Positions 21,600 to 36,019 of a DNA stretch of 64,000 bases are shown here, piece after piece (the stretch's first letter is position 1; each line of letters starts with the position of its first letter). A model generated the notes under the pieces. The model was not told the DNA's origin and did no database searches. It saw only the letters and a program-made list of their open reading frames with translations. This stretch comes from Acidimicrobiaceae bacterium (GTDB taxonomy: Bacteria; Actinomycetota; Acidimicrobiia; Acidimicrobiales; RAAP-2), in assembly GCA_003132205.1 (NCBI GenBank), contig PKWY01000033.1, forward strand, positions 90,373 to 154,372, in the 5' to 3' direction. Both the position numbers and the translations under genes were made by a program.

Positions 21600-22435
21600 G
21601 GCCAGCGCCAGTTGGCGACCGGCACGATTCGAAAGAATGACCGCGTCGGCCGCCGTGCGCGACAGTCTCACGGGCATCATCGGCATCAAGGACCCCCTCC
21701 AACGCGATCTTGCCACTCCACATTGAGCGCAACCACGCCAGATCTTCCCACGTGACACTTGAGTCAAACTGCCCAGCAACCCATTCTTGAGAGTCTTGGG
21801 GGACCTTCCCTGAGGGACCGCGCTTTCGAGGTTTCCGAATGTCAGGGACTTCCCACCCACGGCAACTTGCCGGAGTCATTTGGGATGGCTTGCAACATCC
21901 AACTTTCGGCAGTACGGATTCAGATGCGAGATTCCTCCGTTGAGTCCGTTACGGGCATCACGAAGTCGCCGACGCAACCGCCAAGTCAACGATCAACGCC
22001 AGGGTCGTGCATCCGGCGGCTTGGGCTCTGACAATGAGATTCTCCGCGAAACTACGATCCTTCACTATTTGGAATTGGAACCAAAAGGGTCTGAAGACTT
22101 TGCGAGTAACTTCTTCAATACTGCAAATGGAAAGCGTTCACTCACAGAAGCTGACGCCGACCCGTTCCGCCTGATCTTGAGAGTGACCGGGCAAGCATGC
22201 CAGCAAATCCGACGGGGGGCAAGGGAATTGATTGCGTCTTTCCGAGCGCTGAGGTTTGAAGATTCCGATGAAATACATCACGAAGCACTCTTTGGTGATG
22301 TTTGATTCGGCGCAGGTTATCTTCGTTCGCCTTCAAAGAGTTCTCGGCAAATGCGCCACCGTCGATGTAGTCGAACAGTTGACGAGGAGGTCCCTTGCGA
22401 GCCAGTTCTCGGCAGTCTTCAGTTGTTGCCCGAAC
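21600..22435 (-). pseudogene. lldD: FMN-dependent L-lactate dehydrogenase (alpha-hydroxy acid oxidase) pseudogene
   Basis: Fragments across shifting frames: EDCRELARK..PRQLFDYIDGGAFAE / QRVLRDV / PVGFAGMLAR / CSIEEV...PFWFQ...DRSFAENLIVRAQAAGCTTL / RDARNG / TFGNL / FDSSVTWEDLAWLR..W.GKIALEG / DAVILSNRAGRQL. At least 4 frameshifts, one in-frame TGA and a missing C-terminus. Confidence 0.88.
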
Positions 22436-22664: not shown

Positions 22665-24008
22665 TTAGAGGCCTCTAGACGCGCGGGTATTGATGTGGGA
22701 CTGAGAATCCCTCGCAGTGTTTAGGGTTCCGTCAACCGTCCAGTAGCGCTTGCCGGCGACCAGGAGTTCTTCGGCGGGGAATTTGGTAATGACCTCACAA
22801 CCGGTTGCGGTGACAACCATCTCTTCCTCAATCCTCGCCGCGCCCCAGCCGTCCTTCGCCGGCCAGTAAGTCTCTAGGGCGAAGACCATTCCCTCCTCGA
22901 TCACTTCTGGGTGATCGAAGGACACGAGCCGCGAAAAGATTGGCTTCTCCCAAATGGATAGACCTACACCGTGGCCGTACTGCAACGCGAAGGCCGCCAT
23001 TTCGTCTGGGAATCCAAACTCTTCGGCCTTGGGCCACACCGACACTATGTCGGCCGTCGTGACACCCGGCTTCACGAGGTCAATTGCATTGTCCATGAAT
23101 TCACGACACCTCGTATAAGCGTCCCGCTGAGCAACACTCGCACTTCCTACGGCAAACGTTCGGTAGTAGCAGGTTCGATATCCATTGAAAGAATGAAGAA
23201 TGTCAAAGAAGGCCGGGTCACCGGGACGAAGTATTCGGTCAGTAAAAACGTGGGGGTGCGGGGAGCAGCGCTCGCCCGAAATGGCGTTGACGCCTTCCAC
23301 GTGCTCGCTGCCAAGATCGTAGAGGACCTTGGATACCAGTCCGACACACTCATTCTCCCTGACGCCCGGACGCAAGAAACCGTATAGCTCGTCGTACGCG
23401 GCATCGACCATCGACGCCGCCGTCGCGAGCAATGAGATCTCGTCCACCGTCTTGATTCTTCGAGCCTCCAAGAAGACCTGTTGGCCATCGACCACATCGA
23501 TGCCAAGATCCTTAAGCGCCATAAGAACGGGTATTTCAACGACATCGACGCCGAGCGGCTCGTTCGCGAGTCCATATTTGTCTAATTCCCGCTTGATTGC
23601 CTTTGCAACATCCTCGGCGATGCCAGCATCAGGAGAGAACGCACCTCGAAGCGTCGAGATGCCAGCCCTTGAACCGTGTTCTGGCTCAACTCCTTCACGA
23701 GCACCGGAACCGTGATCCAGCCAAGGGTTATAGAGAACATGATGCTTCGCAGCCGAGCCGAAATCCCAGACGACCGGCTTGCCGCCTCTTGGCAACAAGG
23801 CAAACCTGATGAGCTTGTCAATGGCCCACGTTCCGATGTGCGTTGACGTCATGTAACGAATGTTGTTGAAGTCAAAAGTCAGAAGTGACCCAAGATTGCT
23901 TTGGTCGAGCTTCGTATTGAGCCGAGCCAGCCGCTCTTGCCTCAATCTGTCAAAGTCGACGCGTTGTTCCCAGTCAACGGTGTTGATTCCGAATGTCTTT
24001 ACCGCCAT
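22665..24008 (-). CDS. M24 (pita-bread fold) peptidase-like hydrolase (start corrected to 24008)
   Basis: Creatinase-like N domain; FDIL..FNGYRTCYYRT, GHGVG, ALET and RIEE motifs; GGAGG RBS. Confidence 0.88.
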   Translation of the reverse strand: MAVKTFGINTVDWEQRVDFDRLRQERLARLNTKLDQSNLGSLLTFDFNNIRYMTSTHIGTWAIDKLIRFALLPRGGKPVVWDFGSAAKHHVLYNPWLDHGSGAREGVEPEHGSRAGISTLRGAFSPDAGIAEDVAKAIKRELDKYGLANEPLGVDVVEIPVLMALKDLGIDVVDGQQVFLEARRIKTVDEISLLATAASMVDAAYDELYGFLRPGVRENECVGLVSKVLYDLGSEHVEGVNAISGERCSPHPHVFTDRILRPGDPAFFDILHSFNGYRTCYYRTFAVGSASVAQRDAYTRCREFMDNAIDLVKPGVTTADIVSVWPKAEEFGFPDEMAAFALQYGHGVGLSIWEKPIFSRLVSFDHPEVIEEGMVFALETYWPAKDGWGAARIEEEMVVTATGCEVITKFPAEELLVAGKRYWTVDGTLNTARDSQSHINTRASRGL

Positions 24009-24093
24009 AATTGCCTCCAGTTTGGAATTTCTTGCTGTGTCGTGCCTCGATGTGTTTCTTGATAAGCAAATGTCTTGCTCTTCGCGCGATTCT

Positions 24094-24873
24094 TCAATGA
24101 ACCTGCTGTCCCCCACTGACGTTCAACGACTCGCCCGTAATGTTTGAACCGGCGTCGGAAGCGAAGAACAGGCAGGCGAATCCCATGTCCTCAGGACTCT
24201 GGGGCCGACCAAGCGGAATTCCACTCACGAAAGCCTGCCAACCATTCTCCCCATCGAGGTCGTTGAGGATTCCGTTGGCAGAGTCATCCCAGAGCGGCGT
24301 GCGTACAACGCCGGGACAGACCGCGTTGACGGTCACGTTGTACGGTGCGGTTTCGAAAGCCAGTGATTGAGTCATCCCGACAACACCGAACTTCGTCGCA
24401 CAGTAGTGTGCGAGCCGAGGAAGTCCTTGCTTGCCAGCCATCGAAGAGATATTGATGATTCTTCCGGACTTTCTGTTGATCATGCCCGGAAGAATTCGCT
24501 GGGTAGTGAGCAATACCCCCTTTAGATTGACGTTCATCATGCTGTCCCAATCGTGATCATCGATATCGAGGAAGTCTCGAACAGTCGAGATGCCCGCGTT
24601 GTTAACCAGGATGTCGATCGAGCCGACCGTTCTTTCAATCTCGCTCGCGGCTGTGTCAATTTCGGTTCTTGACGTGACGTCGAGACGTACTCCAGTTGCG
24701 TTCTGTCCGGCATCGTTCAATTGTGCGGCGAAGTTTTTCGCCGCTTCAAAGTCGAGGTCCCCTATCACTACGTGGGCGCCTTCTCGCGCGAAGACCTGAG
24801 CCACTCCCGCACCGATACCAGAGGCTCCTCCGGTGATCAGCGCCACTCTTCCTTCTAATTGGCCGTTGCCCAT
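24094..24873 (-). CDS. SDR family oxidoreductase (start corrected to 24873)
   Basis: TGGASGIG, NNAG, YCATK. Confidence 0.92.
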   Translation of the reverse strand: MGNGQLEGRVALITGGASGIGAGVAQVFAREGAHVVIGDLDFEAAKNFAAQLNDAGQNATGVRLDVTSRTEIDTAASEIERTVGSIDILVNNAGISTVRDFLDIDDHDWDSMMNVNLKGVLLTTQRILPGMINRKSGRIINISSMAGKQGLPRLAHYCATKFGVVGMTQSLAFETAPYNVTVNAVCPGVVRTPLWDDSANGILNDLDGENGWQAFVSGIPLGRPQSPEDMGFACLFFASDAGSNITGESLNVSGGQQVH

Positions 24874-24901
24874 ATTCTTCCTACTTTCTGTTGGAATCCG
24901 C

Positions 24902-25912
24902 TCAAACTGCATGACTCGTCGAGACCGCTGGAAGGACCTCTTTCGCAATGAGCTCGAGAGATTTGGTGCTGACGTCAAGTGGCATTCCAGGTGGACGCGC
25001 CCAAAAGATCAACTCTTCGAATCCAAACTCCCTTTCCGCCGAAAGGATTGATTCGATTATTTCGTCAGGGGTCCCGACGAAATAGTGCGACGTGGACAGT
25101 TCACGGTAGTCAGTTACGACATCACCATGTGTGTCGACGTCATCCGCGTCGGCGAACCACTTTCTATAACCGTTGAATTGGTACAACAAGGATTCGCCGG
25201 CCAGTTCCCATGCTTCCTCTTTTGATGAAGCGGCGAAGATAACTCGGTTCGTCGCGAGTCGAGGCCTCCCGGGACCGTGGAAGTTTTCCTTGTACGCGTC
25301 GTAAATGTCCTTACCCGCGCCGGAGTCCGGCATGAATCCGCATCCGTATTTGGCCGCTCGCAACGAGGCGAACTTGGAATTCCCCCCGATCCAAAGTGGC
25401 GGACCACCTTCGCTGTAGGGCGTTGGGGCAACGATGACATTATTGAAGTCAAAGTGCTCCGAGTGATATGAGAACCTTTCACCCTTCCAGGCCAACTTCA
25501 AGAGTTCAATCGTCTCGTCGGTACGACGTCCACGCTCGGACTTTGGAACTCCCATAACTTCGAACTCTTCGGGTCGATAGCCTGGAGCAATCCCCAGTTC
25601 GAGCCTTCCCCGAGAGAGTTGGTCGACGAACGCCATGTCTTCGGCTAGCCGCAGTGGATGATGGAGCGGCGCGAGAAGGACTGCAGTACCCAATTTGACC
25701 GAGGAGGTCCGATCGGCGAGTACCGCGAGCATCGGCGCCAATGACGGTAAGTAACCTTCTTCGAGGAAGTGATGCTCTGAAACCCAAATGGAATCGAACC
25801 CGATCTGCTCAGCCAGCACCGCCTGATCAAGGAGTCCTTCGTAAAGATCCGGCCACGGCAACTTCGCCTCCGGAGGATTTCGAAAGTCGTACCAGACGCC
25901 CATTTTGGTCAT
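24902..25912 (-). CDS. LLM-class (luciferase-like) flavin-dependent oxidoreductase
   Basis: AEQIGFDSIWVSEHH, LAEDMAFVDQLSRGRLELG and PPLWIGG motifs. Confidence 0.92.
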   Translation of the reverse strand: MTKMGVWYDFRNPPEAKLPWPDLYEGLLDQAVLAEQIGFDSIWVSEHHFLEEGYLPSLAPMLAVLADRTSSVKLGTAVLLAPLHHPLRLAEDMAFVDQLSRGRLELGIAPGYRPEEFEVMGVPKSERGRRTDETIELLKLAWKGERFSYHSEHFDFNNVIVAPTPYSEGGPPLWIGGNSKFASLRAAKYGCGFMPDSGAGKDIYDAYKENFHGPGRPRLATNRVIFAASSKEEAWELAGESLLYQFNGYRKWFADADDVDTHGDVVTDYRELSTSHYFVGTPDEIIESILSAEREFGFEELIFWARPPGMPLDVSTKSLELIAKEVLPAVSTSHAV

Positions 25913-26985
25913 TTCGCCACCTCAATCAGTACTTTGACATCACCGCTACCGCGACGAATGAGACTCTCAAATCCCTTATCGACTACATCACCCAGGGCAA
26001 TAACCGATGACACCACACGGTCAACGGGCCAACGACCCGTTGCCACCAGTTCAATAACTCGGGGGAAGTCGAACACCGGGTAGCACCAAGTGCCCGAAAG
26101 GGTCAGGTCCTTTACCGCGAGCATCTCGGCAGAAATCGACGCGGGCACCACATGAAGGGCAGTCTGGACAATCTGACCTCCGGGCTTTACGGCATCAATG
26201 CAAGCCTGCAGCGCAGCTTCTTTACCCGCACACTCAACCGCGAGGTCAACGCCTAAACCATTGGTGTGGAGTTTGACTACAGCCGCGAGGTCTTCGGTGA
26301 CCGGATTAACTGGAATAATCTCACCGAGGCCTTCGCCGAGTTTTGCTGCACGTTCCAAGCGAACGGGGTCTGACTCTGAGACAATTACGCGACGCGCACC
26401 CCCCGCAAGGGCGTACATCGCTGCGAGTGACCCAATGGGGCCGGCCCCTGTAATAAGCACAGACTGTCCGGGTTGGAGGTGGCCACGATCAACCCCATAC
26501 GCGGCGACTGCAGCCGGCTCAATTAGCGCCGCTTGAAGCGGTGTCACTTCTTTCGGAACTGGAATGATCTGCGAGGCCTTCACAATCGCCAATTCCGCTA
26601 GTCCGCCCCACGCCGCAGAGAGACCTGTGCAGGCCATAGTACGGCATAGATGATTAGCGCCTCGAGCGCACTGGTCACACTCGCCGCAGTAGATAAGGGG
26701 CATTACCGTGCAGAGATCACCTTGCTTGACTGACGTAACTCCCGCACCCACTTCAACGACGTAAGCCGAGAACTCGTGTCCGAGAATCTGTGGGGCTTTG
26801 GAACCGTTCAGAGGGTGTGGCTCAACGGGGATGACAATCGGGCCATCGGTGTACTCGTGAAGGTCAGTGCCGCAAATTCCACAGAACTGGGGACGTACAA
26901 GTACTTCACCAGCTCCGGGATTTGGCGGTTGGGCCACCTCATCAACGGTGATGGATCCTCGGTTATGAAAAACTGCTGCACGCAT
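25909..26985 (-). CDS. Zn-dependent MDR dehydrogenase (butanediol/sorbitol dehydrogenase-like)
   Basis: CGICGTDLH, GHEF, CxxCxxC...C structural Zn site, GAGPIG. Confidence 0.92.
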   Translation of the reverse strand: MRAAVFHNRGSITVDEVAQPPNPGAGEVLVRPQFCGICGTDLHEYTDGPIVIPVEPHPLNGSKAPQILGHEFSAYVVEVGAGVTSVKQGDLCTVMPLIYCGECDQCARGANHLCRTMACTGLSAAWGGLAELAIVKASQIIPVPKEVTPLQAALIEPAAVAAYGVDRGHLQPGQSVLITGAGPIGSLAAMYALAGGARRVIVSESDPVRLERAAKLGEGLGEIIPVNPVTEDLAAVVKLHTNGLGVDLAVECAGKEAALQACIDAVKPGGQIVQTALHVVPASISAEMLAVKDLTLSGTWCYPVFDFPRVIELVATGRWPVDRVVSSVIALGDVVDKGFESLIRRGSGDVKVLIEVAK

Positions 26986-27030
26986 TGATGCTCCTTGCTA
27001 AAAAGGGGGGAAGTTCGTTCTAAGCCAGAG

Positions 27031-27543
27031 TTACTTGTTCGGTGGACGGTTCGCGAGGTAGTTCGCAATTCCTGCATCGACGTCGGCCTTAGGGCGCCGG
27101 TATTTGTACTCCACTAGTTCGAGGGGATAGCCGTCGGGGTCAGCAAAATACACCCAACGCCAGCCCGCCAGCACTCCTTCGTCAACAACATTGATATCCG
27201 AGTAGAACTCAACTCCCTTGGATTCAAGCAGGGACTTGGCTGCGACAATGTCGTCAACTTCGAATGCAATATGTGACGCACCAATGTTGTTGGAAAGAAG
27301 TGCTTCCTCGGTGTCGGACTCTGGAGCCTTGTATTCGAGAAGCTCCATGTAGGTATCACCAAGCTTCAGGCACACCTGGCGCAGGATTGCTCCTGGTACG
27401 CCAACGGCTGGCCCGAGACCGGCGTGATCAAACCAAGGACTTGGTTCGGTACCAATTTCGAGGCCAAGAAGATCCCTATAGAAGTAAATCGATTTGTCAA
27501 GATCCTTGACGGTGAGTCCAACATGACTTTGTGCCTTAAACAT
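27031..27543 (-). CDS. VOC/glyoxalase family protein
   Basis: HVGLTV.DL.KSI.FY, ELLEY, HIAFEVDD and DPDG..LELVE (metal ligands H/E/H/E). Confidence 0.9.
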   Translation of the reverse strand: MFKAQSHVGLTVKDLDKSIYFYRDLLGLEIGTEPSPWFDHAGLGPAVGVPGAILRQVCLKLGDTYMELLEYKAPESDTEEALLSNNIGASHIAFEVDDIVAAKSLLESKGVEFYSDINVVDEGVLAGWRWVYFADPDGYPLELVEYKYRRPKADVDAGIANYLANRPPNK

Positions 27544-27576
27544 CTTGCCCTTTCTGATTGTGTCGTTTCAATTCAC

Positions 27577-28605
27577 TCATCGCAGTAGATCAACCACAAT
27601 CTTTCCTTTCGCTCTTCGTTCAACGAGCGGAACGATCCCCTTCTCCATCAATTCATCAAGAGAAATAACTCGGTCGAGAGCCAGCGCAGCGACATTCGAT
27701 GACGACAGGATTTCTAGAGCCTCTGGAATGTCCTCGGCACATACGTGAGCCAGGGTTCCGTGCAGGTCAATTTCGCGGAGAGTGAACTGGAGCAAATTGA
27801 CTTCGCTAATGCCAGTGTGAAGACCAAGAATCAATACGTCACCACCACGGCGAACCATGTCGAGAGCCTGCTGTGGGCTCCCCTTCACACCTGTCGCTTC
27901 GATGATTGAGTGTGCACCCAAGCCGCCGGTTATTTCGAGGACACGTGCAGTGGCATCTTCCTTGCGGGCGTTGATGACGTGAGTGGCTCCGAGTTCTGCT
28001 GCGCCTTTGAGCCGCTCTTCGTCAATGTCAATGGCAATAACTGGACTCGCCCCGCGAGCAACCGCACCGGCGATCAAGAATCCCCCAATTCCCCCAACGC
28101 CAATGATGGCGGCACTGGCACCGCTTCGAACTCTTGCTCGACGTAGCCCATGCAGCGCCACAGCAAAGGGTTGAACTAACGCCGCGGAAACATCATCGAC
28201 ATTGTCGGGAACTTTGCGGCAGATTGATGCGGGACTCACCACGTAATCCGCAAGCCCTCCATTTGCATGAAGACCTAGCGTGTAGTACTTGTCACACAGG
28301 TTCGTGCGCCCCTCTTGGCACCATTCGCACGAGCCGCAAGAAACGCCCGAGCCACTTACGACGCGTTCGCCCACGTTAAGTCCAGTTACCTGCGAGCCAA
28401 CTTCTTCAATTACGCCCACAAACTCGTGACCGAGAATGACCGGTGGCACTGCGAGTACTGGGCCGTGATCCCACTCTGAAGAATCTGAACCGCAAATCGC
28501 TGCTTTCGAGACAGCGATGAGGACGTCAAATGGCCCCACCGAGTCGGGTTTTGGCGCATCCTCGATGCGGATGTCACCGGGACCGTAGTAGATGGCGGCC
28601 TTCAA
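27577..28605 (-). CDS. Zn-dependent MDR dehydrogenase
   Basis: ICGSD, GHEFVG, CGSCEWC..NLC, GVGGIG. Confidence 0.92.
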   Translation of the reverse strand: MKAAIYYGPGDIRIEDAPKPDSVGPFDVLIAVSKAAICGSDSSEWDHGPVLAVPPVILGHEFVGVIEEVGSQVTGLNVGERVVSGSGVSCGSCEWCQEGRTNLCDKYYTLGLHANGGLADYVVSPASICRKVPDNVDDVSAALVQPFAVALHGLRRARVRSGASAAIIGVGGIGGFLIAGAVARGASPVIAIDIDEERLKGAAELGATHVINARKEDATARVLEITGGLGAHSIIEATGVKGSPQQALDMVRRGGDVLILGLHTGISEVNLLQFTLREIDLHGTLAHVCAEDIPEALEILSSSNVAALALDRVISLDELMEKGIVPLVERRAKGKIVVDLLR

Positions 28606-29582
28606 CTTCCCAGCTCCACGTGAACCTTCGTCGTCTTTCCGCCGGCGCGTGAAAGAGCGAACGCCTCAGCGCAGTCACTGTGAGCGAAGTGGTCAGAGAC
28701 AATCGGAGAAGGATCGACCACTCCGGAGCTAAGGAATCGAATGGTCTGAGGCCAAACGTTCATCGAACCAATGATGCCCTTCACCTCTAGAGACTTCGCC
28801 TGGATAAGGCCCATGGGGGCTTGAGCGGTGCCGCCAACATTGATGCCGACGAAGACGAGACGAGCGCTGTGGCCCGCGAGTTCAATCGCGTTAGCCATCG
28901 CTTTGGGGTGGCCGGCCGATTCAAGCACCACATCAAACATGTCGCCATCAGTTAGCTGAGCGGCCTTCTTCTGGTCGGCTGGCGACTCCGGATCAAGGAC
29001 GTACTCAATGCCAAGCTCCAGTGCCTTCTGACGACGGAACTCCTGAGGCTCGAACAGCGCAACCTTGGCACCGCGTCCTTTGGCAGCAAGTGCAGCCATC
29101 AACCCAATGGGGCCTCCTCCGAGCACCGCAACCCGGTCAGCCGGATCAACGCGGGCAACGAATGTTGCGTTGTATGCAACGCTGAAGGGCTCAACGAGCG
29201 CACCCATGGTCCAACTCATGGAATCAGGGAATTTGTGAAGCCACTCTGCTTTTACAATGAAATACTCAGCCATTGCTCCAGAGATGGTGAAACCAAAGTG
29301 GTCTTTGCCGCCTGCGTTCACCACGCACTCACCCACTACGCGGTCATCGGCACTGAACCCAGTTACGTCACTGCCGACTTCAGTTACCTCTCCCGCCCAC
29401 TCATGGCCGGGAATAATTGGGTAACTGAAGGGCAAGATGTAGCGGCCTTCAAGGAGTTCGATATCCGAGTGACAGATGCCCACCGCCTTTGACTTAACTA
29501 GCACCTCGTCAGGCCCAATGGAAGGGACATCCGCATCCATGAACTTGATCGATTCTCTATCCGTGAAGACCGTGGCTTTCAT
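28602..29582 (-). CDS. Zn-dependent MDR dehydrogenase lacking the structural-Zn lobe
   Basis: GICHSD, GHEW and GGGPIG present; the Cys4 lobe is reduced to GECVVNAGGKDHFG. Confidence 0.88.
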   Translation of the reverse strand: MKATVFTDRESIKFMDADVPSIGPDEVLVKSKAVGICHSDIELLEGRYILPFSYPIIPGHEWAGEVTEVGSDVTGFSADDRVVGECVVNAGGKDHFGFTISGAMAEYFIVKAEWLHKFPDSMSWTMGALVEPFSVAYNATFVARVDPADRVAVLGGGPIGLMAALAAKGRGAKVALFEPQEFRRQKALELGIEYVLDPESPADQKKAAQLTDGDMFDVVLESAGHPKAMANAIELAGHSARLVFVGINVGGTAQAPMGLIQAKSLEVKGIIGSMNVWPQTIRFLSSGVVDPSPIVSDHFAHSDCAEAFALSRAGGKTTKVHVELGS

Positions 29583-29618
29583 TTCTCTTTCCTTTGAAGA
29601 AGGTGTTGGGACTGACTA

Positions 29619-32171
29619 CTAGGCATTGGCGAACTCCTCAACTCTTGATTCCGTTACCTTGGGGTTCGCACGACGATTTCGGGCGTAGGTGTAAATTCCC
29701 ACCGCGAAGAAGATCAAGAATCCCTGGGACCAGTATTGATAGGCCTGGGATAGGTTCAAGAACACCGTAATGTTGAGAAGCTCTTCGAGAAGTAGTGATC
29801 CAATAAAGACACCAATGAACGATCCCCGCCCGCCGAAGACGCTGGTACCGCCAAGCACGACCGCGGTAACGCCGGCCAACGTGAAGTTGACACCCTGGGT
29901 TGCATCACCAACGCCAATCGAAGCCATCAGCATGATGCCTCCGAGTGCCGAGAAAAGGCTGCAAATCATGTAGGCGCGGATAATTGTGAGATTTGGATTG
30001 ATACCAAGTCGGAAAGCGGCTTCCGGATCGGAGCCGACGGCCCGCAAGCGGCGGCCCCATTTACGTCGACGCAGACCATAGTCAAGCATCACCGCGCCCA
30101 CGACGCAGATCATGAACGCGTACGGGATATTCAGTACGCCCTCCTGAACATCATTAATGATGGTGTATGAAACGTAGCCCGCTTGGAATGGCCGGATAGC
30201 GAGCGAAACTCCCTGCAAACCAATATAGGTAACAAGTGTCGCCGCAACTGGAGTAAACACCTTGCTTTGAACCAAAAGGCCATTGACAATTCCAACAACA
30301 GCGGCAACGACCGCCATGACGACAAAGCCAAGTATCACCTCACCAATATTCTTGGTAGAGGTTTCGTACACCGACCCTATTACCGCGGTAAGACCCACCA
30401 TTGGACCAGCGGACAGGTCAATTCCACCAGTCATGATCACAAATGTCTCGCCGAAAGCGACGAAGCAGAGTCCGGCGATGAGCAAGAGGAGCCCGTTGAG
30501 ATTAAAGGCCGACAAGAACCTAGGACTGTGAATTGCTGTAACTACTGTGACCAATACAGTGAGTATTGCGAGCACGGCCGGAGCACCATAGTCGCTACGG
30601 CCAAATCTCTTGAATCGATGACTGGATTGATTTGATCTGGACTTCCGCTCGTTGCTGCTCTCCTGGCGGCGCCTCGTCGCTGTAACAATCGACTGCGTTA
30701 TGTTGTGGCTGATGACATCGTCTCCGCTGAGTTCAGCGACCTTCTCCCCGGACGACAAAGTAATAACTCGGTCGCAGAGGCCGCTTAATTCACGGTTGTC
30801 GGAGGAAACGATGACGACGGCCACACCCTTCTCCGCAATCGAACGAAGGATTTTGTAGATTTCTGCACGGGCACCGACATCGACGCCCTGCGTTGGCTCG
30901 TCAGCGAGAAGCACTTTCATGTCCTGGCTCAGCAAACTACGCATGAATAGGACTTTTTGCTGGTTTCCGCCAGAAAGGGAAAGGACGTTCGAGTCAATGG
31001 AATTCGTTTTAAGAGCGAGGGATTGCGCTCGTTCGCGCACAGCCACGGATTCCACGCTGGAACGCACTACCCCGAATTTTGAAAACATCTTCAAGTTTGA
31101 AACAACCGTGTTTTCGCGTACCGACAACGACGTCATGAGTCCTTCATGCAATCGGTCGGCCGATAAGTAAACGATGCCTTCTCGCAAGGCGTCGGATGAA
31201 TGACGAAGCTTCTTGACCTCCCCATTAACGACTATGTCGCCCGCCGCGCGGTTGAGGCCACCCAACGCCCGAAGTAGTTGGGACTGACCATTGCCAATGA
31301 TGCCAGCGATTCCAAGAATTTCGCCGGCGGGTACTTCCAGGTTAACGTTGAAGAAACCGTCTCCAGTGAGGCCCCTAGTTACGAGTGCGGGAGCGAGAGT
31401 CGCGCCCGCATGTTTTCCCGGAAACTCCGAAGCGAGGGCGCGTCCCACAATCAGACCAAGGATTTGCTGATCGGTCGTATCCGTAACGGCAAAAGTCCCG
31501 CGGCCTTCACCGTCGCGCAGAATAGTTACCGTGTCACAAATCTGTCGAACCTCAGTGAGTCGGTGGGTGATGTAAATGATTGAGACCCCCGAGGTCGCCA
31601 GTTGGCGAACCCGTGAAAACAGCATCTCGGTTTCCCGAGCGCCAAGCGCCGCTGTTGGTTCGTCGAGGATGAGAATCTTTGGCTGAGCCATCAAGGCTTT
31701 TGCGATTTCCAAGAGCTGCTGCTCAACAACGTTCAAATCACTTACTCGAGCGCTTGAAGAGACGTCCAGGCCCACATTTGAAAGTTGTTGAGCAACAAAC
31801 TTCTTGGTAGCACTATCCAATTTGCTCACCTTTGAAGGCAAGCCCATTGCAAGGTTTTCGAAGACGGTGAGATCAGGCGCGAGCGCCGGGTGTTGATACA
31901 CAATTGAGATGCCCAATTCCTGGGTCTTAAGGGGATTGAGGTCTTCGGCCTTCACGCCGAAGACCTCAATCGTGCCTCTGTCGGGTTGGAGAGACCCTGC
32001 GGTCACTCCCATCAGAGTCGACTTTCCCGCACCATTTTCTCCAAGAAGAGCGTGAATCTCCCCCTGTTTCACCTCGAGCGAGACATCCTTGAGGGCTGCC
32101 ACGCCATCGAAGTGCTTCCATACGTTGGAGATCTTCAGTGCAATGGGGTTCGACTGCTGAGTACCGGACAT
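29619..32171 (-). CDS. Sugar-type (CUT2) ABC transporter: double ATPase fused to a permease (850 aa)
   Basis: GENGAGKS, LILDEPT, LSGGNQQKV and LADEPTQGVD, then a RbsC-like TM domain (GGIDLSAG, AVVLGGTS). Confidence 0.92.
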   Translation of the reverse strand: MSGTQQSNPIALKISNVWKHFDGVAALKDVSLEVKQGEIHALLGENGAGKSTLMGVTAGSLQPDRGTIEVFGVKAEDLNPLKTQELGISIVYQHPALAPDLTVFENLAMGLPSKVSKLDSATKKFVAQQLSNVGLDVSSSARVSDLNVVEQQLLEIAKALMAQPKILILDEPTAALGARETEMLFSRVRQLATSGVSIIYITHRLTEVRQICDTVTILRDGEGRGTFAVTDTTDQQILGLIVGRALASEFPGKHAGATLAPALVTRGLTGDGFFNVNLEVPAGEILGIAGIIGNGQSQLLRALGGLNRAAGDIVVNGEVKKLRHSSDALREGIVYLSADRLHEGLMTSLSVRENTVVSNLKMFSKFGVVRSSVESVAVRERAQSLALKTNSIDSNVLSLSGGNQQKVLFMRSLLSQDMKVLLADEPTQGVDVGARAEIYKILRSIAEKGVAVVIVSSDNRELSGLCDRVITLSSGEKVAELSGDDVISHNITQSIVTATRRRQESSNERKSRSNQSSHRFKRFGRSDYGAPAVLAILTVLVTVVTAIHSPRFLSAFNLNGLLLLIAGLCFVAFGETFVIMTGGIDLSAGPMVGLTAVIGSVYETSTKNIGEVILGFVVMAVVAAVVGIVNGLLVQSKVFTPVAATLVTYIGLQGVSLAIRPFQAGYVSYTIINDVQEGVLNIPYAFMICVVGAVMLDYGLRRRKWGRRLRAVGSDPEAAFRLGINPNLTIIRAYMICSLFSALGGIMLMASIGVGDATQGVNFTLAGVTAVVLGGTSVFGGRGSFIGVFIGSLLLEELLNITVFLNLSQAYQYWSQGFLIFFAVGIYTYARNRRANPKVTESRVEEFANA

Positions 32172-32222
32172 CTAACTATCTATCTTTCTTTCTTGACTAC
32201 TGCTGACTGTTACAACGTGGCC

Positions 32223-33362
32223 TTACTTGCGCTGTGGGACCTTGCCTGCAAGGGCAGCCTTCTGCTGTGCATTTGTCAGACCGCTCGAGTTGATAGCGGT
32301 AGCTGGCAGCGATGATTGGCAGTTCGGCGCAACTTCACCACCACTTGGGTGAACCGAGTTCTCATAAGTTTCCTGAGGAACGTTGGTAGTAGGCACTTTG
32401 CCACCGGTTGCCTTCGCAACTGCATAGCGAATTGCGTACTCAACCATCCAATTCTGTGATGAAACTGTCATCAACTGGAAGCTGGGGTCAGATGCAGAGT
32501 CAGCCTTGAACGCGCAAGCGACGTTGTTGCCGTCTTCAGTAGCGATCACCGGAATCTGCTGACCGGCCTTCGCCCACTCTGGGAATGCACCCGCAAGTGC
32601 TGAACCGTAGTCACTGACAACGGCCTTGATGGCGTTCGAACCCGTGTTCTGCGAGAGCAGTCCATCAATGACCGTCACGGTTGTTGCCGGGTCCCAGTTG
32701 GTCACGTTAAATGGTGAAGTACCTACCAACTTGATATTGGGGTAGCTCTTAAACACACTGTTGAGTCCCTGAAGCTCTTGCAAACCCTGCGAGTTTCCTG
32801 GAGGACCTGAAAGGAACGCAACGTTTCCGCCAGCCGTGCCGAGTTGAGCGGCAACGAACTTTCCCCAATCGACACCAGCCGATACGAAGTTCGTACCGAT
32901 GTAAGCAGTGTAGTTAACGTGCGCTTTTCCACCAGGGCTGACGCGGTAAGGAACAACAATTGTTCCAGCCTTGTAGGCCTTGGTGAGCACCGGAAGCATC
33001 GCGGCTCCCGCGTCCGGGAAGTCAACGATTGCATTGATGCCCTGTGAAACAAGCCCGTTTATGTCGCTGATCGCCTTCTGGGTGCTTCCCTGACCATTCG
33101 TGTACACGAACTTCGAAACGCTCTTGCAGCTAAGAGCCGTCAATGCGCCCGAATAACGCGTGATCTCGCGCCAGGTGTTGTTACCGAAACCATCAGCAAG
33201 AGCAACGGATGCGTGCTTTGGTCCGCACCAGCTACCAGGTGAAGTTGCGGCACCTGACGGTGTGCCCGAGAGGGTCAGTGGCGCAATCAGAGCTACAACC
33301 ATCGCTGTAGTCCCAATGATGCCCACCTTCCTCGACCTAGAAATCATCTTGTTAATATTCAT
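32223..33362 (-). CDS. Periplasmic-binding-protein type I (sugar-type) ABC substrate-binding protein
   Basis: Signal peptide; DGFGNNTW, ISDINGLVSQGINAIV; located in the ABC operon. Confidence 0.88.
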   Translation of the reverse strand: MNINKMISRSRKVGIIGTTAMVVALIAPLTLSGTPSGAATSPGSWCGPKHASVALADGFGNNTWREITRYSGALTALSCKSVSKFVYTNGQGSTQKAISDINGLVSQGINAIVDFPDAGAAMLPVLTKAYKAGTIVVPYRVSPGGKAHVNYTAYIGTNFVSAGVDWGKFVAAQLGTAGGNVAFLSGPPGNSQGLQELQGLNSVFKSYPNIKLVGTSPFNVTNWDPATTVTVIDGLLSQNTGSNAIKAVVSDYGSALAGAFPEWAKAGQQIPVIATEDGNNVACAFKADSASDPSFQLMTVSSQNWMVEYAIRYAVAKATGGKVPTTNVPQETYENSVHPSGGEVAPNCQSSLPATAINSSGLTNAQQKAALAGKVPQRK

Positions 33363-33507
33363 TTCCCCCCTTATAGGTTTTTGGTGTTACTTCATTTACA
33401 GCAACTTCTCCCACTGCAGTAGCGATGGTCGAAGAAATTCGCTTAATAGAAAAAGTTGGCAATGCCTCCTTTGTCTTCACTAAACGATCTGGTGTGCTTC
33501 AATGCGA

Positions 33508-34533
33508 TCATGTTGAGGAACCCGTACTAACGGGGTTCGAAACCAACGATGGATTGTGACCTCGCGTCGTCCTTGGGCGCTTGAAGAACTTGGACAACCC
33601 GCCCGACGAACGCAATCCGTAAACGCTGATCCCAATGGCAAGCGCGACTGCTTGAACAATGTCTTGAACCGCCGCAGTCGCACCAGTGGCGAGCACAAAC
33701 CCTTGGAGTTGGATGAGAAAGGCAGCTCCGAATGCAGTGGCGACCGGACTACCCGCTCCACCAAGCAAAGCGGTGCCGCCAAGCACGACAGCCGCCACCG
33801 ATAAGAGCAAGTATGTATCACCCTGGAAGACGTCAGGCTGTTGGATGATTCCCGCGAGCATTACACCTGCGAGCGTGTACAGCATTGCCGAACCCACGTA
33901 GGCCATGTATCGGTAACGATTCGTGCGCAGACCAGCTGCGAGGCCGGCTCGCTCGCTCGCACCGCTCGCTTCAAACCTTCGTCCAACGATTGTCTTCTTC
34001 ATTACCAACTCGACTGCAACAATCACGATGACCCCAAGCACGAAGGGCATTTGAAGTCCGAACACGTGGTCATTCATGAAATTGAAAAGGTGTGTCGTGG
34101 TTTGGGTTGGCGTTCCGTGACAAATTGCAACGTTTATGCCGTACAGAACAGCATTCATTCCGAGGGTCTGAACAATTGGCATGATGCCAACTCGTGTAAC
34201 CATGAATCCGTTCACGAATCCGGCAACAATGGCGACGCCAAAGGCTAGGAAGATTGAAGGGATCAACAGTGAATTGTTTCCGTTTGGCATGTGCGAGACA
34301 ATGATCGCTGAAAGCGAGATGAATCCCGGTGCCGACAGGTCAATACCGCGCTGCTGAATAATTAGTTGCTGACCAACACCAACGACCATCAGGACGCCGA
34401 CAAAAGGCCAGAAGGCAGCGAGCGCGGCGCGTCCTAGACTCGATGGTTCAACCAGCGCCGAAGCAATGACGAGCAGCAGAAAAGCAATTGCAATACCGCT
34501 TGATTTTGACCAGCGGCTGAATTGATCTCTCAT
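33508..34533 (-). CDS. Sugar-type ABC transporter permease
   Basis: GIDLSAPG, G.VNG.MV and AAVVLGGT.L.GG.GS motifs. Confidence 0.92.
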   Translation of the reverse strand: MRDQFSRWSKSSGIAIAFLLLVIASALVEPSSLGRAALAAFWPFVGVLMVVGVGQQLIIQQRGIDLSAPGFISLSAIIVSHMPNGNNSLLIPSIFLAFGVAIVAGFVNGFMVTRVGIMPIVQTLGMNAVLYGINVAICHGTPTQTTTHLFNFMNDHVFGLQMPFVLGVIVIVAVELVMKKTIVGRRFEASGASERAGLAAGLRTNRYRYMAYVGSAMLYTLAGVMLAGIIQQPDVFQGDTYLLLSVAAVVLGGTALLGGAGSPVATAFGAAFLIQLQGFVLATGATAAVQDIVQAVALAIGISVYGLRSSGGLSKFFKRPRTTRGHNPSLVSNPVSTGSST

Positions 34534-34610
34534 TTACGACCCCCTCCCCCGAGAAGACATTTCGATTCTTTGGCACAGCAAGCAATGAACTACTTCCGAA
34601 CTCTCATGAA

Positions 34611-35042
34611 CTAGTGAGAGTGATCGTCACCACCCACCGTTGGGTAGCGCATTTCATAGCCGGCAGTAGCTTTGGACGAGGCGCCTGCCCAACCCCAGAT
34701 CATCTCTGCTTCTTCTGTCGCCGATGTGTTCCTAAAACCGTGCCAGGCACCCTTCTTATGAAACGCAACGTCACCTGCCTTGACAGGTATTTCATTGTCA
34801 CCATCCAGAACGATTCCCTCGCCTCTGGTGATGTACGCAAACTCCTCGGCGTTCTCGTGGCGGTGCCACTGGTGCTCGGAATGACCCGGAGCGAAGCGAG
34901 CTCGACCAAATACAAGGTGTTCCGAACCGCCATTGAATGCGTCAATCACGAACTGCACGGTCATACCAACCCAGCCTTGATCTGGACCGAGATCCGGTTG
35001 TGCCGGCACTTCGTCAATATTCACCTTGTACGTCTCGCCCAT
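34611..35042 (-). CDS. Metal-binding cupin
   Basis: HQWHRHENAEE motif 1 and G.WHGFRN motif 2. Confidence 0.9.
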   Translation of the reverse strand: MGETYKVNIDEVPAQPDLGPDQGWVGMTVQFVIDAFNGGSEHLVFGRARFAPGHSEHQWHRHENAEEFAYITRGEGIVLDGDNEIPVKAGDVAFHKKGAWHGFRNTSATEEAEMIWGWAGASSKATAGYEMRYPTVGGDDHSH

Positions 35043-35299
35043 GAGAACCCCCGTTTCTTGGTCAGGCTAACCACATCATTGGGTAGCATATTACACACAG
35101 AACGGACGTCTTGTTCAATAATGCTTGAAAATCTTGAGCGCTAGCGAACAACATATTTCGTCTGAAAGTTACTGGGTAGTATGAGTTATCTTGGCTTTCT
35201 GAATGATCTATCTCTCCTTAACGAATTTGGAGAGGGACAGAAACATACACATCGGGCGCACACCAAGACTTAGAGTTGAATGAGACAGGAGGCATTGAT

Positions 35300-36019
35300 A
35301 TGACGACAGAGATTGGTGCCCTTCTACGGCGGGCCAGACTCAAGCAATCGATGAGTCTCCGAAGCCTCGCCTCTGCAATTGGTGTATCAGCGAGTCTTAT
35401 TTCACAGGTAGAAACGGGAAAGACTCAACCGTCAGTTTCAACTCTTTACTCCTTGAGCAATTATCTGGGCTTGTCCATGGATGATCTCCTGGGGAATAGT
35501 CCTTCGGAAATAACCTCATTGAAGCGATCCGCTGCGGCCATGCAAGGACCACACGGGACAGTCCTCCCCGCAGTGCAGTACGCCGCTGACAATCCAAGCA
35601 TTGAAATGGACAACGGCGTTCGCTGGGAGCGACTGGCCGTTGGCGAAGGTGGTCCCGCTGAACCCTTGCTCGTGACTTACGCACCTGGCGCGTCGAGTTC
35701 GATTGAGGGGAAACTCATGCGTCATAGCGGTTTTGAATACGCCTATATTCTCGAGGGCGAGCTAACACTTCAACTGGAATTTGATACTTACGTTCTCTCA
35801 GCCGGCGATTCGCTGCAATTCGACTCTGTACGGCCGCATATGTACACCAATCACGGCACGGTGGCAGCACGAGGAGTCTGGCACGTGGTGGGCCGTCGCC
35901 AGCAAAACCAAGAAATGCCGACGGCGCCAGAGAATCCCAACTCGAGAGTCAAGAAAGGCGGTACGGATTTGAATACCGCTGTTGATGTGCTTGACGCTCT
36001 GGACCGGTTCATTTCTTGA
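35300..36019 (+). CDS. XRE-family HTH plus cupin transcriptional regulator (start corrected to 35300)
   Basis: SLRSLA..IGVSASLISQVETGKTQPSVSTL HTH; H.GFEYAYILEG...FDS.RPH cupin; AGGAGG RBS; divergent from the cupin/ABC operon. Confidence 0.93.
   Translation: MTTEIGALLRRARLKQSMSLRSLASAIGVSASLISQVETGKTQPSVSTLYSLSNYLGLSMDDLLGNSPSEITSLKRSAAAMQGPHGTVLPAVQYAADNPSIEMDNGVRWERLAVGEGGPAEPLLVTYAPGASSSIEGKLMRHSGFEYAYILEGELTLQLEFDTYVLSAGDSLQFDSVRPHMYTNHGTVAARGVWHVVGRRQQNQEMPTAPENPNSRVKKGGTDLNTAVDVLDALDRFIS

Follow-up and report, generated by a model that had tools for sequence, protein, structure and literature searches.

What is the substrate of an operon that joins a sugar-type importer to a series of oxidoreductases and an M24 pita-bread enzyme, with no sugar kinase among its genes? 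The question is raised by positions 22665-36019 of a 64,000-nucleotide stretch of an Acidimicrobiaceae genome (assembly GCA_003132205.1, contig PKWY01000033.1; "the window" below means this whole stretch), where eleven intact, co-oriented minus-strand genes are accompanied by one divergent plus-strand regulator (Table 1). With moderate confidence we read the locus as a horizontally mobile operon, regulated via an XRE-cupin protein, for the non-phosphorylative breakdown of an imported polyol, deoxy-polyol or cyclitol derivative. In the order of steps and direction of flux that we propose, a divergent CUT2 ABC importer, one permease of which is fused to the ATPase, would take the compound up. 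Three NAD-dependent medium-chain dehydrogenases (MDR_A, MDR_B and MDR_C) would then oxidise or epimerise its secondary alcohols to an alpha-hydroxyketone or diketone, assisted by a short-chain dehydrogenase (SDR), a small cupin and a metal-dependent vicinal oxygen chelate (VOC) protein that may act as keto-enol isomerase or epimerase. A luciferase-like oxidoreductase (LLM), probably F420-dependent, would add one more redox step. An E1 alpha/beta pair of the acetoin/pyruvate dehydrogenase type, dependent on thiamine pyrophosphate (TPP) and here supplied in trans from contig C7 of the host assembly, would split the chain or ring next to the carbonyl. The M24 enzyme, which has an unusual Cys metal ligand, would with the SDR as an optional side module catalyse a non-peptidase hydrolytic or eliminative step common to many clusters.

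An earlier note on this DNA had described the block at the same coordinates as ten co-oriented genes, many coupled by ATGA overlaps, divergent from an XRE-cupin regulator. The block lies where it was placed, and the plus-strand gene upstream of the operon encodes HTH_3 and Cupin_2 domains as described. The operon genes number eleven, however, and although they are compactly laid out, 4-nt overlaps occur at only 2 of their 10 junctions, MDR_A/MDR_B and MDR_C/LLM (gaps in transcription order: 77, 145, 51, 36, -4, 33, 45, -4, 28 and 85 nt). The absence of a kinase, aldolase or flavin reductase from the operon holds good and extends to dehydratases. The arrangement is far beyond chance; its order recurs in other loci. 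The note had not mentioned the ATPase-permease fusion, the decayed gene next to M24, the dip in G+C, the E1 enzyme of related operons or the modular, exchangeable make-up of such clusters, all described below. Families were assigned with Pfam and NCBIfam profiles, with the curated equivalog cut-offs as the criterion of identity.

The importer has the domain set of the CUT2 family (TC 3.A.1.2), with matches to Peripla_BP_4 (99 bits), ABC_tran (168 bits in two stretches) and BPD_transp_2 (91 and 92 bits), so that the earlier description of a sugar-type importer without a sugar kinase is correct. No importer gene reaches the equivalog cut-off for a CUT2 system of known specificity (ribose, arabinose, xylose, allose, AI-2 or galactofuranose); the best curated scores are 413 bits against 689 for AraG, 97 against 388 for LsrC and 45 against 335 for the allose substrate-binding protein (SBP). 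The window importer shares with RbsABC, AraFGH, XylFGH, AlsABC and LsrABCD an SBP, a two-domain ATPase and two BPD_transp_2 permeases. Unlike these systems, it has missed every equivalog cut-off, its SBP is extremely divergent (the best solved structure scores only 55 bits), and its ATPase and one permease form a single polypeptide, with a tandem ABC ATPase from residue 1 to about 500 and permease 2 at residues 560-823. The same fusion, of 843-874 aa, occurs in loci L020, L025, L027-L036, L065 and L102. It is rare: of 401 genomes sampled across the phylum, 2-3 have a clear homolog. It is kept in Acidimicrobiia, Microbacteriaceae, Amycolatopsis and genome G411, and is split in L106 into proteins of 267 and 599 aa.

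All three MDRs comprise ADH_N and ADH_zinc_N domains with the catalytic Cys, His and Glu zinc ligands, and the GxCxSD and GHE motifs can be read in their translations. MDR_A, which is without the structural-zinc Cys lobe and has an NAD-type E ending beta-2, scores 175 bits with the Tdh model and 174 with IolM, both under the cut-off, and 139 bits with the Tdh structure 2dfv. The closest structures to the other two, both also NAD-type, are sorbitol dehydrogenase for MDR_B (1pl6, 172 bits) and (R,R)-butanediol dehydrogenase for MDR_C (6ie0, 202 bits; IolM 196 against 450). Across the three, Tdh scores 175-184 and IolM 174-196 bits against cut-offs of 380-450, IolM being the best or second-best match of each. 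None reaches the cut-off for L-threonine 3-dehydrogenase, IolM, L-idonate 5-dehydrogenase or galactitol-1-P dehydrogenase (cut-offs 380-550; best scores 174-196 bits). In the translations of all three MDRs and the SDR, beta-2 ends in an acidic residue, by an established rule a sign of NAD preference, and from it we infer that these enzymes use NAD and work in the oxidative direction. The SDR, also NAD-type, has the YxxxK catalytic motif. Three NAD-type dehydrogenases of the polyol-dehydrogenase kind fit the earlier suggestion of a polyol or cyclitol substrate. The VOC protein has H/E/H/E metal residues and a Glyoxalase domain at 54 bits; it scores 48 bits against a cut-off of 115 for MMCE, 44 against 120 for GloA, and 36.8 with its best structure. 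No VOC gene was found in L106 or in the Amycolatopsis genome region. The small cupin has an intact HxH...E...H metal motif, reaches no curated family, and matches the structures of TM1287 (44.6 bits) and DddK (33-35 bits) weakly; its orthologs head the operon in L025, L102 and L106.

The LLM passes the F420-type model TIGR03619 (Rv2161c type) marginally, with 168.6 bits against 166.9, the only curated cut-off reached in the operon and that of a domain model. The FMN-type model TIGR04027 gives 146 bits against 413, and JGI labels homologs "probable F420-dependent oxidoreductase", where NCBI has "flavin-dependent". A search of the host genome for F420 biosynthesis genes, proposed as a check in the earlier note, recovers CofD (308 bits against 257) and the CofH half of a 756-aa FbiC ORF (468 against 374), so F420 should be available in the host. 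Together with the marginal TIGR03619 match this lends modest support to the earlier suggestion that the LLM may be F420-dependent, and we consider it probably so from its sequence.

Evidence for the last step comes from relatives of the operon. In L102 and L103, genes for a TPP-dependent E1 alpha and beta directly follow M24; in L104 (a Streptosporangiaceae metagenome-assembled genome, MAG) and L106 (a 5.3-Mb assembly) they directly follow the LLM, and in L104 the LLM stop and E1 start overlap. L107 has LLM-SDR-M24 without E1, and the Microbacteriaceae locus has a fused E1ab with E2, an aldehyde dehydrogenase (ALDH) and HIBADH. Because E1ab stands directly 3' of LLM or M24 in these sister operons, we regard it as the recurrent terminal enzyme. 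The subunits are of the pyruvate/acetoin dehydrogenase type (TIGR03182, 337 bits against 394; PRK09212, 353 against 321), and the M24-linked E1 alpha proteins, 64-72% alike, form one family. The window operon contains no E1_dh and Transket_pyr/Transketolase_C genes. The host's sole member of this E1 family lies at C7:13893-15814, directly after an M24 paralog, and is 69-72% identical to the L102 pair; this pair would serve the operon in trans. The paralog (53-56% identical), E1 alpha and E1 beta at C7:13893-17080 make up a second, differently equipped M24-E1 cluster member in the host genome, whose surroundings include a LIV-type ABC importer, an alpha/beta hydrolase and E2.

Such a route would resemble acetoin/2,3-butanediol catabolism (AcoA/AcoB/AcoC/AcoL) in its butanediol-dehydrogenase-like MDR_C, an alpha-hydroxyketone intermediate and the pyruvate dehydrogenase (PDH) E1-type pair of the sister operons, as well as in the ALDH and E2 of the Microbacteriaceae locus. 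It differs from the acetoin system in its sugar-type SBP importer, three MDRs, VOC, cupin, LLM and M24, in E2 and E3 that are mostly not in cis, in an E1 alpha that scores under the PDH cut-off, and in a window operon without E1ab.

A scan for MDR_C covering 185,579 species genomes brought up rearranged versions of the operon. Cluster types rest on tblastn; in the neighbourhood table and the tree, rough gene calls gave wrong labels to a few loci, L027 and L034 among them. The same gene order is found in L020 and L021 (JGI metagenome contigs), in L025 (an Acidimicrobiaceae MAG, including regulator and cupin), and in L102 and L103, a more distant lineage with 53-81% protein identity; it is partly kept in L024 and L026 (fragments), L104, L106 and L107. 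Two lineages have rearranged it. The Microbacteriaceae carriers (Amnibacterium kyonggiense DSM 24782, Curtobacterium ammoniigenes NBRC 101786 and MAGs) have FMN_dh / permease-SBP-ATPase::permease-M24-MDR_B-MDR_C-MDR_A / PRISE-type reductase and VOC, followed by XRE-cupin / ALDH, a second VOC, fused E1ab, E2 and a HIBADH-type reductase. Four Amycolatopsis genomes have XRE-cupin and an EboE-type TIM barrel / MDR_C-permease-SBP-ATPase::permease-PRISE, followed by XRE-cupin / SDR-M24-MDR_A-MDR_B. The fused importer, the three orthologous MDRs, M24 and the XRE-cupin regulator are common to the window lineage and both rearranged lineages; VOC, cupin, LLM, SDR, PRISE, TIM barrel and FMN_dh are lineage-specific. 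MDR_C orthologs are 53-86% identical in all cluster variants. We conjecture that in the Microbacteriaceae and Amycolatopsis versions, which have no LLM ortholog, a PRISE-type reductase takes over the LLM step, an equivalence suggested by mutually exclusive occurrence only. Both SDR and M24 are missing from the L104 and L106 loci and both are present in L102 and L107, so the pair behaves as an optional two-gene module.

L034:8506-9708 (Amycolatopsis sp. CA-161197) encodes the 400-aa TIM barrel, which scores 392 bits against 250 with the model of EboE, a family otherwise known from the cyclitol-related eboA-F operon. L065 (G411:C1:674700-694600) is a hybrid in which the fused importer type stands with two deaminase-type amidohydrolases, M24, the 234-aa SDR, a second VOC and fused E1ab, which indicates that importer type and enzyme cassette assort independently. 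A candidate 816-aa frame at L095:6643-9093, from a rough six-frame ORF call, would join BPD_transp_2 to Amidohydro_1, in a high-G+C locus where neighbouring genes may read as one frame.

A second type of cluster, which we call type I, is found in soil Actinomycetota and is likewise uncharacterised. It shares with the window the regulator family (up to 73% identity), M24 (up to 92%), a CUT2 importer and the M24-linked E1ab family, and in G411 even the fused ATPase-permease type. Its upper set consists of amidohydrolases, a bicupin, the 234-aa SDR and a HIBADH-type reductase; the window cassette has instead three MDRs, VOC, LLM, the 259-aa SDR and the small cupin. No homolog of the type I amidohydrolases or bicupin was found in the host genome.

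The M24 protein matches PF00557 with 131 bits (cut-off 23) at residues 194-401. Its metal ligands D269, C280, H346, E379 and E394 do not vary among 59 of 59 homologs and depart from the canonical Asp, Asp, His, Glu, Glu set of MetAP, prolidase and aminopeptidase P in that Cys replaces the second Asp. DddP provides the sole full-length solved relatives (74 bits). The DddP model NF043017 aligns over the full length at 112 bits (cut-off 600), and the DoeA models TIGR02993 and NF038259 align over the C-terminal domain only, at 46 and 55 bits (cut-offs 613 and 575). The protein has in common with DddP, creatinase and DoeA the pita-bread domain, a creatinase/DddP-type N-terminal domain and a small-molecule catabolic context. 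It is unlike them in its invariant Cys ligand and in its partners, which are E1ab, a HIBADH-type reductase, ALDH, bicupin and a deaminase-type amidohydrolase. A reading of the cupin and M24 as lyases of dimethylsulfoniopropionate was rejected as the primary one: the DddK (33-35 bits) and DddP (74-112 bits) matches are weak, no curated Ddd model is reached, and neither the habitat nor the sugar-type importer suits such a reading.

M24 has no exclusive tie to this operon. The family has more than 8000 clustered homologs and occurs in 54 of the 401 sampled Actinomycetota genomes, and the window copy is 80% identical to Streptomyces proteins. A survey of 59 M24 loci found as neighbours a CUT2 ATPase (27 loci), HIBADH-type reductase (26), deaminase-type amidohydrolase (25), E1 alpha (23), 234-aa SDR (23), XRE-cupin (22), ALDH (16) and bicupin (15). 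Plasmid copies are found in Paenarthrobacter, Rhodococcus opacus 1CP, Phaeobacter/Tritonibacter and haloarchaea, those of Phaeobacter/Tritonibacter with a full E1-E2-E3 set and an ALDH resembling succinate-semialdehyde dehydrogenase. Minimal XRE-M24 pairs exist, for example in L063 and on Rhodococcus opacus pR1CP1. The full-text literature searched assigns no function to the M24 family or to the cluster.

The M24 family also appears in two further settings. A third paralog in the host genome, at C50:6362-7612, adjoins a rhodanese and an arginase-family gene beside arsenic-resistance genes; its alignment extends beyond the stop codon, and the C-terminus may be truncated. On a plasmid of Paenarthrobacter sp. 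R1 (L100, CP127116, 107863-112083) an XRE-RidA-M24-HIBADH-type-SDR-LpdA module directly adjoins sulfonamide-degradation genes, namely the sulR/sadC flavin reductase and monooxygenases of the acyl-CoA-dehydrogenase type. The paper on these plasmids gives no link between the Paenarthrobacter plasmid copies and the nearby sad genes, and we treat their proximity as coincidence.

The closest relatives of the window M24 (90-92% identity) reveal how the unit is built. In these, one chromosomal site holds the same regulator and M24 with three different gene sets between them, which are bicupin-SDR only (L022), amidohydrolase-ABC (L011-L013) and the present cassette (L020, L025). The other cassette, a deaminase-type amidohydrolase with a bicupin, accompanies the same M24 in sister genomes. 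In a quick M24 tree the window copy falls in a clade with 99% support that includes both cassette types, and the M24 copies of five same-genus genomes, all with the other cassette, form a separate clade. In the window, the block has a G+C content of 0.52-0.56 compared with 0.60-0.64 on both flanks, and the genes that flank the unit in relatives (DUF4232, sulfite/nitrite reductase and uroporphyrin methylase) lie on host contig C48, away from the operon. Directly downstream of M24 is a frameshifted remnant of an FMN-dependent alpha-hydroxy-acid dehydrogenase, two frames of which match residues 41-257 of the intact cluster-linked FMN_dh with 26-32% identity (tblastn). The G+C dip, the different chromosomal site, the remnant at the end and the M24 tree together indicate that the regulator-cassette-M24 unit moves as a block, and the operon is horizontally mobile. 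Intact FMN_dh homologs flank the Microbacteriaceae cluster and precede M24 in L067 and L092.

The earlier note had been right to see a catabolic operon, but had put C-N cleavage by M24 at the heart of the pathway. If so, the substrate would be a nitrogen-bearing polyol (aminocyclitol, iminosugar, glycosylamine, mycosporine-like or guanidino-cyclitol) and the dehydrogenases would process its carbon skeleton, an alternative that we rate as rather unlikely. Among non-peptidase M24 enzymes, creatinase and DoeA cleave amidine C-N bonds and DddP, the one full-length relative with a solved structure, eliminates a charged leaving group. Elsewhere the family is linked to deaminase-type amidohydrolases (25/59 loci), a flavin amine oxidase and RidA, and the EboE-type barrel of the Amycolatopsis version belongs to a family known from a cyclitol-related operon. 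Against this, L104 and L106 keep importer, cupin, MDRs, LLM and E1ab without SDR-M24 within the locus; the operon has no aminotransferase, deaminase, ammonia- or urea-handling gene, nor anything else that is nitrogen-specific; and M24 copies that stand behind unrelated upstream cassettes are 92% identical, which implies that the enzyme does not track this substrate. The claim is not supported as it was stated; M24 may cleave a C-N bond, but not as the central step. Another alternative is a mosaic, in which regulator and M24 would form an older two-gene unit, the redox cassette would have been inserted between them, and M24 (perhaps with the SDR) would be functionally unlinked to importer and MDRs. 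The near-identical chromosomal settings of the three gene sets, the 85-nt gap before M24 and the minimal XRE-M24 pairs would agree with this. We nevertheless hold a mosaic to be improbable, as distant actinobacterial families have M24 together with the three MDRs and the fused importer in at least four different gene orders. In Microbacteriaceae M24 sits between importer and MDR_B, and all 12 loci that have an MDR_C ortholog of at least 53% identity on a long enough contig also have M24. No terminator-like site was seen in the SDR-M24 gap.

An ordinary operon for a known sugar alcohol or inositol isomer, with kinase, aldolase or dehydratase encoded elsewhere, appears the least probable of the alternatives. 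Such pathways usually begin with a CUT2 importer and MDRs of the polyol-dehydrogenase type, and the IolM, Tdh and sorbitol dehydrogenase models top the sub-threshold matches. All curated equivalogs are nonetheless far below cut-off, nothing that has been characterised is close to the SBP, the distribution of the cluster is rare and patchy, and known routes for polyols or inositol do not accommodate the recurrent partners E1ab, LLM or PRISE, VOC and M24. The likeness to myo-inositol catabolism is one of chemical logic only: cyclitol dehydrogenation, TPP-dependent or hydrolytic ring opening, a cupin-fold isomerase (IolB), a semialdehyde dehydrogenase, an MDR (IolM) and a CUT2-type importer. Unlike the systems of Bacillus (IolG/IolE/IolD/IolB/IolC/IolJ/IolA) and Thermotoga (IolG/IolM/IolN/IolO), the operon has no homologs of IolG, IolE, IolD, IolB, IolC or IolJ, no Gfo/Idh/MocA gene, and no kinase or aldolase. 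None of its 12 proteins, regulator included, reaches the cut-off of an Iol model, and IolN (NF041098) has no match in the genome. IolN was rejected as an analogue of the hydrolase, its family being missing from the genome and unrelated to M24. The statement in the earlier note that no described pathway matches thus agrees with what we find.

The non-phosphorylative breakdown of a polyol, deoxy-polyol or cyclitol derivative, which we prefer, has points against it as well. Every catalytic role is assigned by analogy, since no enzyme reaches a curated equivalog cut-off. The SBP, at 55 bits to any structure, is too divergent for its ligand to be predicted, and CUT2 binding proteins are able to bind non-sugars. 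The LLM could be FMN-dependent, as the TIGR04027 match and the NCBI names would allow, and the nearest solved structure (116 bits) bears the deposited name alkanal monooxygenase alpha chain; in that case the LLM would act as a monooxygenase and depend on a reductase whose gene lies elsewhere. CofD is present in 4 of 4 genomes tested, including those in which a PRISE-type reductase replaces the LLM, so complementarity between F420 and PRISE is not informative. The window lineage (window, L020 and L025) has no E1 in cis, and the E2 and E3 partners are not in the operon.

A broader proposal, to which we attach less confidence and which we would call possible but tentative, is that the operon with its M24-linked E1ab is an undescribed non-phosphorylative route, that the Cys-ligand M24 catalyses a new non-peptidase reaction, and that M24 and E1ab form a widespread "lower pathway" module with exchangeable upper cassettes and importers. 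The module so proposed occurs in ~13% of the Actinomycetota genomes sampled, and plasmids of Roseobacter and haloarchaea carry it too. Assigning the reaction of M24 or of the dedicated E1 would annotate thousands of genes, and the cultured carriers (the Amnibacterium and Curtobacterium strains named above and Amycolatopsis spp.) make the pathway directly testable. With one regulator/M24 pair flanking at least three alternative cassettes at the same site in close relatives, the locus is also a case of modular evolution. What it suggests for the uncultured Acidimicrobiia of freshwater and soil is a carbon source that metabolic models do not yet include, and perhaps a role for F420 in catabolism.

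The features are listed in Table 1. Longer open frames would start the SDR at 24978 and M24 at 24116; both starts are artefacts, as orthologs have 259 and 447 aa.

Table 1. Features of the locus, in window coordinates; the operon is given in its order of transcription.
Feature	Position	Strand	Evidence
Regulator, XRE-HTH and cupin	35276/35300-36019	+	HTH_3 54 bits, Cupin_2 51 bits (Pfam)
Divergent control region, AT-rich (putative)	35043-35299		function inferred
Cupin, 143 aa, first gene of the operon	34611-35042	-	Cupin_2 63.8 bits
ABC permease 1 (CUT2 type)	33508-34533	-	BPD_transp_2 91 bits
Substrate-binding protein, secreted	32223-33362	-	Peripla_BP_4 99 bits
ATPase::permease 2 fusion, 850 aa	29619-32171	-	ABC_tran x2 and BPD_transp_2
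MDR_A, Zn-dependent dehydrogenase	28602-29582	-	ADH_N and ADH_zinc_N
MDR_B, Zn-dependent, polyol-dehydrogenase type	27577-28605	-	Pfam ADH_N and ADH_zinc_N
VOC, glyoxalase I / methylmalonyl-CoA epimerase-like	27031-27543	-	Glyoxalase 54 bits
MDR_C, Zn-dependent dehydrogenase	25909-26985	-	ADH_N and ADH_zinc_N; PDB 6ie0 202 bits
LLM, luciferase-like oxidoreductase	24902-25912	-	Bac_luciferase 209 bits
SDR, classical, 259 aa	24094-24873	-	adh_short 223 bits
M24 pita-bread enzyme, 447 aa	22665-24008	-	Peptidase_M24 131 bits
Decayed FMN_dh remnant	about 21650-22423	-	Pfam FMN_dh on a 131-aa fragment

The regulator has the architecture of PuuR, with HTH_3 at the N-terminus and Cupin_2 at the C-terminus, and scores 68 bits with the PuuR model (cut-off 211). 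Its ORF opens with TTG at 35276; ATG at 35300, which gives 239 aa, is the likelier start because AGGAGG lies 7 nt upstream. The protein is 61-73% identical to the regulators of sister clusters of both cassette types. A scan for promoter consensus sequences, in the control region among other places, and one for terminators gave nothing above shuffles. An operator proposed for XRE-cupin proteins of Acidimicrobiia, TGTGTAGTGTSACT, was rejected, its 5 matches against 4.75 expected being at chance level. A 14-nt stretch, GTTCAATAATGCTT, is common to the control region of the window and its counterpart in L025, and no operator could be defined beyond it. A candidate operator with TTGTTC...GAACAA arms lies around 35111-35151, between two copies of the direct repeat TGGGTAG(C/T)AT, at 35080-35089 and 35173-35182, 93 nt apart. 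Both copies of the repeat resemble TAnnnT -10-like elements on the plus strand.

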